The position numbers and the translations under genes were made by a program. From an uncultured virus (IMG/VR IMGVR_UViG_3300025168_000059) (taxonomy: Duplodnaviria > Heunggongvirae > Uroviricota > Caudoviricetes): a DNA stretch of 64,000 nucleotides. The notes below the pieces were generated by a model, which was given only the letters and a program-made list of their open reading frames with translations, made no database searches and had not been told where the DNA came from. The stretch lies in the IMG/VR virus record IMGVR_UViG_3300025168_000059, one strand, 5' to 3'. Position 1 is the first letter of the stretch, and each line of letters opens with the position of its first letter. Shown piece by piece: positions 1 to 62,357 of the stretch.

Positions 1-3000
1 TGTACAAGCTTCCTAGCTTTACCCCCAACAATTTTATTTCCTTCTTGATCAGTAAATTCTGTTAAAGCATCAAAATATTCTAGTGCTTTCCCAAGTTTAG
101 ATTGAGGATTAAACCTCCCTATATCTGAAACTGCTGCTCCCTCACTAAACCAATACTGTGTTTTAGCCCAAGCAAGATCAGATTTAGACATAAACTGACT
201 AGCAACTGCTTCTTGAGCCATAGTTAAATTATCAAGAATTAATTGATTTGCTCCTTGCAGTAAGTTAAACGATAACGTACTCATTGCAGTAAATGCATTT
301 AAACTTCCTACCGCTTTAGTTAAAGAAATTCCTCTCCACTCACTTTTTAATTCATTTTGACCAAACACTACCATATCAATCCATTCGTCAAGATGCTTAA
401 ATGTATTAGACTCTCCTTCTTTTAGTAAAGGCATTTTAAAGCCCATAGCTTCTGCAGTTTTTTGTACATACTCAATACCTGAAGAGTTTTCTTCTAATAC
501 TTTTCTATTTTTAAGAATATCTCTAAAAAGCATTATAGAACCTAAAGCTTCTGATTTAGCTTGATAATTGTGGGCCATATGTCTAAACTGATATAAACTA
601 CTAGCTATATCTCTAGACACATCGTTAGCAGAAACACTATTAGTATAGTATACTGGCACATTTTTATTTAACTCTCCACTATTTTGATCATAAGTACCAA
701 ACTGATCATCTGTTTCTACAAGAGAAAAACTTTCTTTAAGCATGTCTTTTGTACCTGCTACAGCTCCCTGTTGTCTTAGCCTATCAAAATCTTTTTTTCT
801 AATAGAAGGCATTAAATAAGAAAATTTATCCCAAGAGTTTTTATCCATACGTTTACCCCCAATTAACTGTTGGCCTTTTTGCATTTCTTCTAAAACAAAA
901 TCATAGTATTCTTTTAATCTAGGATCTCCTTGTATTTTAGTGTATTTTACATTAGTGTACTTAGATTTTTTAGGTCTTACCCAATCTCTTCTAGGACTAT
1001 TAGTAAAAGAATTATAGTTATTATCTTTAAATTTTTGAAGCTCTTTAATACGCCCTACTTGCATAGAATATGCATCACTATCTTCTTTACCTTCTTCTTT
1101 TAGTTTTACTCTAGATTTTTTAGCGTCAGCTATTTGTTTATTTATTACAATTAATTCTTCTTTCCAAGTGTCAATAGGTTCACTATTTTGTCTATCCCAA
1201 GTTGCCTCTTCTTGCCTAAGTTTTTTGTAGTTATTTGATAATTTCCACGCCGCATAATTAGCTTTAAAACTTGCCTCATCCTGCCCCTCTTCTTTTGTTG
1301 GTTGACCGTGTTTTACATTTAGCTTTTTAATAAATTCTGATTTATCATTATAATATTTATCTGCATCAATAGGGTTAACTAAGGATAATCTTTTTTTACC
1401 TTTAATTGTTACCTCTTCTAGTAAATCTTCATTTAATTTAGCAACATCAGACTCAGATCTTCCTTCAGCAAATTTATCATAAGCACTGCTTAACTCAGAT
1501 TTAAACTCACGAGTCATGTCATTCTTTTTTAAATCAGCTTCTTGTACAGATTTAACAAACAATTGTATAGTCTTATCGTTACTGTAAATTAATGGGTCTA
1601 ATAAATATGAAAATCTACTTTTATCTTTATGGGCAGCTCTTAACTGTTTAACTAATGACCCATAATTAGGAATCATTTCATTTTTAAGTTGCTCTACTTT
1701 TAATGCTACTTTTGAATCTAAAAATTCTAATTCAGTAATATCACCATTATTATAGCTTTTTTTAAGTTCTGCATATTCTAAAGACTCAGTGTCTAAACCT
1801 TGGGTTCTTTTATACTTAATAGTATTATCAATTTGTGCTTGCAGTTGTGAATCAATTGCTTTATTGTGGTAACCAGATAAAAACTGGGCCATTACAGGAA
1901 TTACATTATCATTAAATTTTTTGTCTAGTACTAAAGCTGTGTTTAATATAGAATCTACTTTATCTTCTAGAGCATTAAATTTACTTTCATCTAAAACTTT
2001 ATCTTCATCTTTTTTAACAAGCAAAACTCTTTTAATAGATTGCATTACATCTAGCCCGTCTAATTCAGATTTTAGAGTATACATTTTACTCATATTCTCT
2101 AAAGTAGCTCTTTCATTTAACGGTAACTCCATTATATTGTCATACTGATTAATAGCTGACAATAACGTTCTACCCATACTATTTACAGTATCTAACAAGT
2201 CTTCTACTTTATTAACTCTGTTTAAACCTTCCTTAAGATTTTGTAATTGATATACTCTTTTTTCTCTTTCTGTTGCGGGAAGCTGTTCTACTTCATAAAG
2301 TTCTGACGCTATTCTTACTTTTAAATTTTGTACAATTTCTGTAAAGTTTTGCTGATCTCTTGATTGCTGAGTATAAGGACTTAGAGGATTGATCATTCCT
2401 TCAGCTCGCAATTGTTTTGCAAACATTTCTTCAGCAATTACCGCTGCAGCATTAGGTTGTACACCAAAAAGTTTTCCAAACGCTCTTAATATTCTATTAA
2501 TAAGTTGTTGCAGTGGACTAGGGTCCTTTCTTACAATTCTAGCGCCTTCTAGGCCAATTGCTGTAGCTAGAACTTCTTTGTCTAACCTTTCACCGGTTAA
2601 TTCAGGGTATTGTTGTGCAACTCTATCATACAAAGGACTTGCTTTAAGATCTGCTATAGCCTTAGCTACAACAGGGTCGTTAATACCTAACATATCAATA
2701 TAGATATGACCAAACTCATGATATGCCGTGTCTTCTTTAACTTTATTTGGGTTAATAACAACAAGTGGATTAACTTCACCTGGCCTTACTTCCCCTAAAC
2801 TCTCTAGCTCTGTATCATACTGCACATCTACAATAACACCGGCCTTAGCAAATGCTTCTTTTAAATGTACAACTTTTGCTTCAAGTCTATCTATCTCTTC
2901 TTTTTCCATGTCAGAGAATTTACTCTGATCGCTGGTATTCTCTTGTCTTGCTTTTTCATCTAAATAATAATCATCTGTATTTTCTTTCCCCGCTATAAAT

Positions 3001-35987: not shown

Positions 35988-35988
35988 T

Positions 35989-36198
35989 TTAATTCCAAAA
36001 TATTAATTTACCTAATATACCTATTAAAACTAACCAAATAGACCAAAGGGTTTTTTGAGTAGCTTTTCTAAAACTAGTATTTCTATTAACTCGTGAGATA
36101 GTTCCATCGTCTGGATCTAACAATCTTTTTTTAATAAATCTCACATCTTCTTTTAAATCTCTTAACTCTTCGTGTATTTGTTTATTAGTAATAGGCAT
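35989..36198 (-). CDS. Small coiled-coil protein with C-terminal TM
   Basis: 69 aa. C-terminal LWSIWLVLIGILGKLIFW. Confidence 0.55.
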   Translation of the reverse strand: MPITNKQIHEELRDLKEDVRFIKKRLLDPDDGTISRVNRNTSFRKATQKTLWSIWLVLIGILGKLIFWN

Positions 36199-36201
36199 AG
36201 C

Positions 36202-36372
36202 TTATAATTCAAATCCAAAATTCAATACTATAATTCTAAATCTATTAGAAGTACAATCTTTTGTGCAGAATAAACATACCTTCATTTCTAATACTGTTAT
36301 TCTACCTAATCTAAAAGTAATTTCATACTTTTCTTTTTTATTTCCTTTAGCCCAACTATTAATCCAATTCAT
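36202..36372 (-). CDS. Small hypothetical protein (56 aa)
   Basis: Not in the ORF track. MNWINSWAKGNKKEKYEITFRLGRITVLEMKVCLFCTKDCTSNRFRIIVLNFGFEL. Has an ATGA overlap with the upstream stop and fills the gap exactly. Confidence 0.65.
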   Translation of the reverse strand: MNWINSWAKGNKKEKYEITFRLGRITVLEMKVCLFCTKDCTSNRFRIIVLNFGFEL

Positions 36373-36458
36373 TTCGTTTCAGTTTTAGTTGTTTTTTCGT
36401 GAGAACCATCGCAGCTCCCATCTTCAGATTTTGTCTTACCACATGCACATTTTGCCAT
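36369..36458 (-). CDS. 29-aa CDGSH-type [2Fe-2S]-binding peptide
   Basis: Not in the ORF track. MAKCACGKTKSEDGSCDGSHEKTTKTETK with an A-rich leader. Translationally coupled to the next ORF. Confidence 0.7.
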   Translation of the reverse strand: MAKCACGKTKSEDGSCDGSHEKTTKTETK

Positions 36459-36470
36459 AATTTTATTGTT

Positions 36471-60965: not shown

Positions 60966-61205
60966 TTATATTTTTAATTCTATTTTAGCTATACCCCCAT
61001 TAATATTAATTTCAGATGTTTTAGATTGCCTGTTAAATTCTGACACATACTTATCAATATCTTCTCTTGTACACAGAAAAGATAAAAATACTTGCAGTTC
61101 TTTAACAGCTAACTCTAAGTCTTTCCTTGTATCTACAGATTTAGAGTTTGCCTCTAAAAATTTATGGTAATCTTCAGTAGATATAGTGACAGTGCCTTTT
61201 ACCAC
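60966..61205 (-). CDS. Hypothetical protein
   Basis: 79 aa. TVTISTEDY start. Overlaps the groES stop. Confidence 0.55.
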   Translation of the reverse strand: MVKGTVTISTEDYHKFLEANSKSVDTRKDLELAVKELQVFLSFLCTREDIDKYVSEFNRQSKTSEININGGIAKIELKI

Positions 61206-61468
61206 TTACCTAATAACTGATGTTCTCCAACTAACAGTAAATCTTTTTCGTCTATTCTAGCTTTTATAGCTTCTGTTCTGGGATCTATCATAACAGTATT
61301 CCCTTTTTTAGCAAAAGTGCACATAGGTCCTACTGCTAATACCTCTAATATGTTAGATCTCTTAGCATTTGATTCTGCTGTATCATCTCCTACAAAGATA
61401 CCTGACTCTGTTTGTGTAATTGTTGGGTCTGGAAGGACGACCCATGATCCATTTGGTGTAAATTTCAT
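61199..61468 (-). CDS. groES: GroES-like co-chaperonin
   Basis: FTPNGSWVVL, TESGIFV mobile loop, VLAVGP, KKGNTV, LLVGEHQLLG. Confidence 0.8.
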   Translation of the reverse strand: MKFTPNGSWVVLPDPTITQTESGIFVGDDTAESNAKRSNILEVLAVGPMCTFAKKGNTVMIDPRTEAIKARIDEKDLLLVGEHQLLGKW

Positions 61469-61486
61469 AATCTATATATTTTTAGG

Positions 61487-61519
61487 CAAAGATATAAATT
61501 ATTTTTTTATAAATCCAAA
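61487..61519 (-). promoter_or_regulatory. Bacteroidota primary-sigma promoter for the late operon
   Basis: Minus strand TTTG (61516-61519), 21-nt spacer, TATCTTTG (61487-61494). Matches TTTG-N19-21-TAnnTTTG. Confidence 0.75.
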
Positions 61520-61544
61520 TGTTTTTTAAGAAAAGTTTTTTTAC

Positions 61545-61803
61545 TAGAGGTAACTAGACGCAGTTATCCCCCTTGAGGTTTGATTTCAAACTTGGATTTC
61601 ACTTTAGCAGTGCTTCTCTTTTAAGAGACCAAAGGATAGTAATATTGATGTTAATTCACCGCACTTACCTATGTGCAATCTATCCTAACTAAAGTTTATA
61701 CACTCGTTCTTTTGCAACTACCGGAGAAAACTCTAATCCTATTTGGATCTACAATCCGATGTCTTTTCCCTTGTATGGTTACCGAGGGATGATATTGTTG
61801 CGG
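61545..61803 (-). ncRNA. Candidate structured non-coding RNA (~260 nt)
   Basis: No ORF, GC higher than flanks, many nested helices, and an upstream promoter. See findings. Confidence 0.55.
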
Positions 61804-61805
61804 TG

Positions 61806-61835
61806 CAAAAGTAATAAAAATATATTACAATGCAA
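61806..61835 (-). promoter_or_regulatory. Bacteroidota promoter upstream of the ncRNA candidate
   Basis: Minus strand TTG (61833-61835), 19-nt spacer, TACTTTTG (61806-61813). Confidence 0.65.
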
Positions 61836-62099
61836 GTAAAAATACAAAAATCATAAGTAATAAATATATTACAGGGGTTAAATCTCTTGTTTTCATACTA
61901 CAAATATATTGTTACTTTTTTAGACCTATGTTAAGGTAATGTTAAATTTTAGAATAAAAAAAATTTTTTTTGGAGGGTTAATGAACGTGTGAACCAGCAC
62001 AATCATCGACCCCCACTATATTACGGAGTTCAAAGTACCCGTGCTTTAATCTCCAATTCAGAACTATTTTCTGAATTAATTCAAAAACATAAATGCCTT

Positions 62100-62357
62100 A
62101 TGTCAGCAGAACTAACACAAATCAGCATGCAAGAGTATGCTCAATCTATTAACGCAGTCAGCGGAGAAATCATAGCAGGTCCTAACGGAGACTTCATCTC
62201 ATTTAAACATGCTGATGATACCAAATCTACTTTACCAATAGGTAATAGGAGTCAAGGTATGAACAAGCCATCTCAACTTGATGTATTGATGCTACCTGAC
62301 GGTGGTAAAGTAGCTACTGTTAATCAATATGTAGGACAAGGTGTGGAAAGCTTCTAG
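62100..62357 (+). CDS. First plus-strand (early) hypothetical protein
   Basis: ATG at 62100 after an A-rich leader (MSAELTQISMQEYA...). Preferred over the GTG at 61989. Confidence 0.6.
   Translation: MSAELTQISMQEYAQSINAVSGEIIAGPNGDFISFKHADDTKSTLPIGNRSQGMNKPSQLDVLMLPDGGKVATVNQYVGQGVESF

Follow-up and report, generated by a model that had tools for sequence, protein, structure and literature searches.

A conserved structured RNA candidate with its own predicted promoter at the head of the late genes of marine crAss-like phages

The window, that is, the whole 64-kb stretch of viral DNA analysed here, carries on one strand and in this order genes for the large terminase subunit (TerL), the portal, and the major head protein, all of the crAss type (phrog_6681, phrog_6547, and phrog_11589). 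For its TerL, identity peaks at 42%, with Crassvirales phage cr114_1, and 159 phage records match, mostly those of phages of Bacteroides, Flavobacterium, and Cellulophaga. Shine-Dalgarno-like motifs were found upstream of only 2 of the 53 window genes, and this scarcity, together with the promoters of the Bacteroidota type described below, fits a Bacteroidota host. One of the two motifs, GGAGGG at 61972-61991 on the plus strand, precedes the GTG start codon of the first plus-strand gene by 11 nt and a three-codon ATG mini-ORF by 3 nt. GC skew tracks gene direction in the window.

The minus-strand late array opens with a GroES-like gene, and a 520-nt spacer separates this gene from a divergent 122-aa ORF on the plus strand. 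The features of the locus are as follows.

61989 to 62357, plus strand: 122-aa ORF, first gene of the opposite, divergent module; no family matched.
61806 to 61835, minus strand: predicted RNA promoter of the Bacteroidota -33/-7 type, with TTG (61835-61833), a 19-nt spacer, and TACTTTTG (61813-61806).
61546 to 61805, minus strand: predicted structured RNA of ~255 nt (alignments and a match to covariance model R1 at 61803-61552, 287 bits).
61487 to 61518, minus strand: predicted late-operon promoter, TTG-N21-TATCTTTG (pattern scan).
61199 to 61468, minus strand: GroES-like gene, first of the late array (phrog_3188, E 2.3e-08).

The GroES-like protein also matched Pfam Cpn10 (E 0.0011), a match too weak to reach the curated cut-off. 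A sequence-only reading of this DNA had proposed that the spacer encodes a multi-stem non-coding RNA of ~260 nt, lying upstream of the late operon in an ORF-free and relatively GC-rich tract. All of the elements that it named, pairings included, are present where it placed them. The minus strand of the tract holds no ORF of at least 30 aa and the plus strand only two of 39 aa each, the GC content is 0.34 to 0.40 versus 0.18 to 0.25 in the flanking spacer, and the RNA does head the GroES/TerL module in Crassvirales-like phages. An element of about the proposed size exists as well, its length being closer to 255 nt; its 5' end was inferred from the promoter and its 3' end from the last conserved hairpin. 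A covariance model search found a single R1 copy in the window (287 bits), and ARAGORN found 0 tRNA or tmRNA genes there. The 484-nt apparent gap at 35988-36470 holds small ORFs and no further RNA candidate.

Homologues were identified in both viral contigs and marine metagenomes. Seven viral contigs were reached through a search with the GroES-like protein; six of them carry the spacer element at 75% to 100% identity (in one of these, L004, a distance of 1.7 kb separates it from the GroES-like gene downstream), and a further copy (L009) was reached through the 122-aa ORF. A search pattern made of the two invariant blocks of the first alignment matched 118 stretches in viral contigs, of which 114 are homologues; the other four matches (L012, L067, L077, and L091) were dropped by eye as GC-rich chance matches. 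The remaining viral matches comprise 90 distinct 270-nt sequences, including six divergent ones. The core pattern was also present in at least 120 marine metagenome contigs, and all 80 of the metagenome loci examined from these matches fit R1 at an E value of ≤0.001, 75 of them with scores of at least 93 bits and the 5 others, which are divergent, with 25 to 53 bits. Since the viral-contig and metagenome collections may share samples, the two sets are not independent in origin. R1 detected one copy per record in five of five family records, including a complete 93.9-kb genome. One typical family member (L154) is situated 3 to 6 kb from the end of a 303,891-base metagenome contig.

Outside these collections, the three exact-core matches in bacterial and archaeal genomes (one per species) were all rejected as chance, falling in unrelated, mostly coding sequence. 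A blastn 'distant' search of 50,697 phage records with the 520-nt spacer as query gave no match, and R1 at an E value of ≤1 found nothing in cr114_1, Fpv1, crAss001, phi14:2, or crAssphage ZA, a search in which the full-length model may miss very distant forms.

The fold was assessed by covariation. RNAalifold predicted 44 base pairs from 84 sequences, 20 of them with compensatory changes. A 47-pair structure of our own, counted on a MAFFT alignment of 50 diverse sequences, was 95.9% paired, versus 34% to 53% when the partners were slid by 1 to 3 columns, and changes on both sides were seen in 23 of the 47 pairs, versus 3 to 7 in the slid controls; the observed value was reached by 0 of 500 shuffles on four of five measures and by 20 of 500 on the fifth. 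The second data set (77 distinct metagenome sequences) gave 98.2% pairing, double changes in 25 of 44 pairs, and 0 of 500 shuffles on all five measures, in an alignment that was made on the model and leans toward the structure to which it was fitted. Compensatory change among the collected relatives, which the sequence-only reading had named as a check, thus lies well above both slid controls and shuffles. The folding energy, also named there, is weak when taken alone and is not strand specific (minus strand, z of -1.75, with 10 of 200 shuffles folding as well; plus strand, z of -1.84). Standard pairs make up 98.2% on the minus strand versus 88.7% on the opposite strand, and the excess of G-U cells (235) over A-C cells (25) identifies the minus strand as the RNA strand.

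The helices supported are P1, P2, P3, the long-range P5, P6, P7, P8, and the outer part of P9. From the 5' end, the predicted parts of the RNA, all on the minus strand, are as follows.

61714 to 61801, minus strand: domain 1, closed by P1 (61801-61797 with 61718-61714); covariation.
61767 to 61789, minus strand: P2 (61789-61786 with 61770-61767), with a conserved GGUAACCA loop; covariation.
61752 to 61764, minus strand: invariant core strand AGACAUCGGAUUG, unchanged across 84 of 84 aligned sequences and also across the six divergent members.
61735 to 61749, minus strand: hairpin P3 (61749-61745 with 61739-61735), loop AAAUA; covariation.
61719 to 61730, minus strand: core strand UUUUCUCCGGUA, invariant in the 84 sequences and in the six divergent members.
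61603 to 61693, minus strand: domain 2, enclosed by long-range P5 (61693-61688 with 61608-61603); RNAalifold.
61633 to 61686, minus strand: P6 (61686-61680 with 61639-61633), containing P7 and P8; covariation.
61676-61673 with 61664-61661, minus strand: P7, inside P6.
61660-61657 with 61650-61647, minus strand: P8, inside P6.
61615 to 61628, minus strand: P9, a variable hairpin; alignment.
61567 to 61574, minus strand: conserved, Shine-Dalgarno-like purine run AAGGGGGA, its GGGGG invariant in 84 of 84 sequences.
61546 to 61572, minus strand: 3' hairpin beginning within the G run, -9.3 kcal/mol in the window.

Eight of the stems first proposed from the window hold in the alignments of its relatives. 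In domain 1, GCAAC/GUUGC (P1) is 100% paired with compensatory changes in five of five pairs, a result repeated in the second data set; UCCCU/AGGGA is conserved as UCCC/GGGA (P2), 100% paired, with compensation in two of four pairs (four of four in the second data set); and GGAU/AUCC is conserved as GAUCC/GGAUU (P3), 99.2% paired, with compensation in four of five pairs. In domain 2, AGGAUAG/CUAUCCU, GCAC/GUGC, and GGUG/CAUC (P6, P7, and P8) are 99% to 100% paired, with three, one, and one compensatory pairs, respectively. The UCUCU/AGAGA hairpin (P9) survives in its outer three pairs (80.4% paired, one C-G/U-A switch) and not in the rest, and the 3' stem recurs as a hairpin, its register varying between homologues. 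Two proposed hairpins did not stand: GUUUG/CAAAC is confined to this window, and GAG-UUUU-CUC is 76.7% paired with zero compensation and rivals an invariant pairing, in which UCCGGU of the UUUUCUCCGGUA strand can form a six-pair helix with AUCGGA (61760-61755). As that pairing never varies, it lies beyond the reach of covariation. P5, a helix absent from the sequence-only reading, shows compensation in four of six pairs and is 98.0% paired in the second data set.

A further helix in the inter-domain linker (61710-61706 with 61695-61691) is 80.6% paired with three compensatory pairs, and it appears in relatives as AGAGU/ACUCU or AGAAC/GUUCU. Three of its bases belong also to the 5' strand of P5, which makes the two mutually exclusive; the linker helix may represent a switch or an intermediate in folding. 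No covarying tertiary pairs or pseudoknots beyond the nested helices emerged when every pair of columns was scanned.

The six divergent viral members score 40 to 57 bits against R1. Their domain 1 and 3' tail align with those of the other members, domain 2 is replaced, an extra hairpin is inserted between P1 and P2, and the tip of P2 carries a GAAA or UAA loop; AGACAUCGGAUUG and UUUCUCCGGUA are invariant here too. Their records encode a crAss-type TerL that is 34% to 43% identical to that of the window and lies 7 to 9 kb downstream on the same strand; in every record checked, the RNA is 4 to 9 kb upstream of TerL. Domain 1 is a predicted multi-helix junction with 24 invariant bases (AGACAUCGGAUUG and UUUCUCCGGUA), and domain 2 a predicted junction that the long-range P5 closes. 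The invariant junction bases, together with the tertiary-type loops, point to a putative compact fold that binds something.

At the 3' end, the divergent members keep GGGG, GGGA, or GGGAGG at the purine run. Among 71 distinct homologues, 38 have a 3' hairpin at or below -4 kcal/mol and none has one followed by at least five U residues outside the stem, and an E. coli-type scan of 61300-62100 in the window found no canonical terminator. Hairpins with a U run were seen in some members (e.g., L030, L042, and L014). As a terminator, the hairpin is therefore a weak candidate, with only 38 of 71 folding well and with the U runs, where present, forming part of the stem. A mini-ORF after the G run was considered and rejected, since the triplet concerned reads AUA in the majority of members and in the remainder AUG, GUG, GCG, or ACG.

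No known RNA family was recognised, in agreement with the earlier statement that the family was unfamiliar: the Rfam scan proposed there (Rfam 15, 4227 models) gave 0 matches at the gathering threshold in the window, a permissive scan of 61300-62100 gave four chance-level matches, none reaching its gathering score, and eight homologous loci, scanned likewise, yielded no relevant match. A full-text literature search, judged from listings and abstracts, turned up no description of a comparable RNA, and passages of PMC9226505 proved irrelevant to it. By these comparisons, the predicted RNA is a new family, which does not imply a new mechanism.

Sequence matches were present in two RNA runs, both from one study of oligo-dT marine metatranscriptomes available as contigs and both containing 0.10 to 0.11 of the sampled words. 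The matching contigs are 90% to 95% alike and so derive from relatives. Their summed depth is ~30 over 61746-61807 versus mostly 2 to 5 in the flanks, and one contig enters the promoter region; as the libraries may hold DNA, this was given no weight either way. High summed depth from many tiny contigs of these runs over an A8T8 tract (61957-61972) was taken as a low-complexity artefact.

The sigma-A promoters of Bacteroidota have the consensus TTTG at -33 and TAnnTTTG at -7. The promoter that had been proposed for the RNA, TTG-N19-TACTTTTG, is present and fits the pattern of TTG, 17 to 21 nt, and TAnnTTTG. The TAnnTTTG box occurs in 147 of 161 distinct homologues and the full motif including TTG in 58 of 161; in 143 homologues the box ends 43 to 45 nt before the ACAUCGG core, which is 4 to 5 nt before P1. 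The second promoter, predicted to serve the coding genes, also lies downstream of the RNA as proposed, at 61518-61487 ahead of the GroES-like gene. Of 18 loci examined further, 15 have a GroES-like match, and in 13 of these 15 a full TTG-N17-21-TAnnTTTG motif stands ~50 nt before it, the other two having the -7 box only. In the window itself, the RNA promoter and the late promoter are the only intergenic host-type promoters predicted on the minus strand; the four other matches of the pattern scan fall inside ORFs, and ~8 matches are expected by chance on both strands together. An E. coli-type promoter scan of 61300-62100 found 0 promoters, as expected for a Bacteroidota-type host. In a divergent subfamily that lacks TAnnTTTG (L056 at ~1600-1625, minus strand; L082 at ~1415-1440, plus strand; and L124), ACCTTTT-N9-11-CGTTATA stands just upstream of P1. 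As a general promoter class, this motif was rejected, since the complete 93.9-kb genome and a 45.8-kb record each contain it only once.

The genes that follow the RNA vary. Among 86 loci (not deduplicated), the first downstream ORF is GroES-like in at least 53 and a cysteine-rich ORF of 62 to 64 aa in 13; the first ORF called is not GroES-like in 33, and apart from the cysteine-rich ones these ORFs are of various kinds, small or of middling size. Such cargo includes DUF5522, Laminin_G_3, and ORFs without a family, and in the loci checked further any extra genes invariably sit after the RNA and ahead of the late promoter, with no promoter of this type in front of them. The predicted order of the unit is thus promoter, RNA, zero to two cargo genes, second promoter, and late array. 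Because the cargo genes of those loci have no promoter, the RNA would there also be a 5' leader, and the 3' hairpin would be no tight terminator.

Five distinct metagenome sequences (L147, L162, L170, L186, and L235) have no promoter box. In these, where enough upstream sequence is available, the RNA directly follows, in the same direction, the genes for a tyrosine integrase (matching Pfam Phage_integrase at E 3.4e-18) and for an excisionase-like protein of the HTH_17 type. In the three that extend far enough, neither a GroES-like ORF nor a late-promoter motif was found past the RNA. P1 of the integrase-linked copies differs by compensatory changes, which suggests diverged copies and not fresh insertions. 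The contigs are only ~2 to 2.6 kb long and could belong to a satellite, an island, or the end of a prophage. The ORF that follows the RNA in L170 starts with an apparent signal peptide, and its Protein Atlas matches (Bacteroidota hypothetical proteins), all below 0.9, serve as a lead only.

The conservation of 24 invariant bases while TerL drifts to 34% identity, the occurrence in well over a hundred marine contigs, and the absence from Rfam and from the literature searched mark this as a functional RNA of an unfamiliar kind. Our preferred reading, to which we give roughly an even chance, is that the locus is a self-contained gene for a folded non-coding RNA that serves as a trans-acting scaffold in marine crAss-like phages of Bacteroidota. 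The host RNA polymerase would make the RNA as a separate unit from the host-type promoter, and the RNA would act in trans as a folded scaffold that binds some macromolecule, protein or otherwise, of either host or phage. It would not primarily be the leader of the late operon, and the small cargo genes that have no promoter would probably be cotranscribed behind it. An independent RNA gene is favored over a late leader by (i) its own promoter and 3' hairpin, (ii) the separate, conserved late promoter, (iii) the unrelated cargo, and (iv) the copies outside the late setting. Against this stand the loci in which promoterless cargo genes follow the RNA and the lack of a canonical terminator in the window. 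Moreover, even deeply diverged members keep the RNA at the head of the late array and in the same orientation, as a cis role would also explain. A bolder form of the proposal, which we put forward only tentatively, is that the family represents a new class of compact trans-acting phage RNA, a ribozyme or ribonucleoprotein scaffold, that would seize the Bacteroidota ribosome (via the Shine-Dalgarno-like AAGGGGGA tail, although host and phage make little other use of such motifs, as the 2 of 53 genes indicate) or RNA polymerase, and whose value would be such that integrase-bearing mobile elements keep a diverged copy.

The RNA might instead be a cis-acting leader for processive antitermination, its transcripts running through the 3' hairpin, the cargo, and a late array of at least 61 kb; this we consider unlikely, though worth weighing seriously. 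The RNA always heads the TerL array and points in the same direction, even where TerL is 34% to 43% identical, no intergenic minus-strand host-type promoter other than the two at the array head was found along the 61 kb, and the promoterless cargo genes imply read-through into them. However, in 13 of 15 loci the late genes have a conserved promoter of their own past the RNA, so that the RNA need not be part of most late transcripts, and the integrase-linked copies that can be traced have no late operon behind them. The known cis-acting processive antitermination RNAs, put of phage HK022 (~70 nt) and EAR of Bacillus (~120 nt), are also much smaller. They resemble the present RNA in being structured, in lying just past the promoter that opens a long operon (a phage operon in the case of put), and in needing no particular downstream gene, whereas the RNA described here is ~255 nt long, has nine supported helices in two domains, shows no sequence or model similarity to them, and is separated from the operon by another promoter.

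Lambda 6S RNA, a short terminated transcript from the late promoter PR', is a comparable case in that a short transcript with a hairpin end (the 3' hairpin being predicted here) starts at a promoter immediately preceding the late genes. The lambda late genes, however, need read-through from PR', whereas the late genes here have their own predicted promoter, and the present RNA has a covarying, tertiary-style fold kept down to 34% TerL identity.

It is quite improbable that the transcript is a replication primer or origin transcript, whose G run would seed an RNA-DNA hybrid at the divergent junction and which would be processed to prime DNA synthesis. The location at the divergent switch between two gene modules, the invariant G5 run within an AT-rich genome, and the tandem promoters followed by an AT-rich spacer agree with such a role, and carriage by integrase-bearing elements would suit a shared origin. 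Yet the GC skew follows gene direction and places no origin here, the fold is far more elaborate than priming requires, and the invariant bases are located in domain 1 and not at the 3' end alone.

The position 4 to 9 kb upstream of TerL in every record checked, together with the integrase-excisionase-RNA arrangement of five distinct metagenome sequences, would also accommodate a role in packaging or in helper-satellite interplay, the RNA being either a partner of TerL or the portal or a handle copied by integrase-bearing elements to exploit the phage. The pRNA of phi29 is likewise a phage-encoded multi-helix RNA with its own promoter near packaging genes. Here, however, there is no match to the Rfam pRNA or to any other Rfam model, the alignments as judged by eye hold no complementary loop pair for ring formation, the crAss-like phage has an ordinary TerL and portal, and the integrase-bearing contigs extend for just 2 to 2.6 kb, and we regard this role as highly unlikely.

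Still less credible is a riboswitch-like cis-regulator of the following gene. The succession of promoter, complex fold, and, in some members (L030, L042, and L014), a hairpin with a U run is what such a regulator would show, and ORFs follow directly in part of the family; but there is no relationship among the downstream genes, and most loci lack any gene ahead of the next promoter. The 3' G run is invariant and so carries no information on alternative pairing at the 3' end.

A DNA-level element with no functional RNA (a binding array, a pac site, or an origin), which would fit a control region between divergent modules and a folding energy no better on either strand, is barely conceivable given the ratio of G-U to A-C (235 to 25), the 23 to 25 helix pairs kept by compensatory changes, and a promoter abutting the first helix.

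ROOL and GOLLD are large orphan structured RNAs of >500 nt that are common in phages and prophages. The present RNA is like them in being complex, conserved, phage associated, of unexplained function, and equipped with tertiary-contact loops (here, the GAAA or UAA loops in P2 of the divergent members). It differs from them in its length of ~255 nt and in its distribution, which, as far as seen, is restricted to marine crAss-like contigs; neither of the two models matched.

The crAss-like group ranks among the most abundant phages infecting Bacteroidota, and the timing of its late gene expression is poorly understood. An RNA of ~255 nt offers a defined target for structure work, pull-downs, and reporter assays, and if it does modify the polymerase or ribosome, it would represent a phage takeover route specific to Bacteroidota. 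A separate observation concerns TerL itself: in two relatives (G002:C1:2161-5160 and G003:C1:19423-22473), the TerL matches fall in two pieces within a single open frame (1037 and 1073 aa, respectively), which suggests an in-frame insertion, possibly intein-like.
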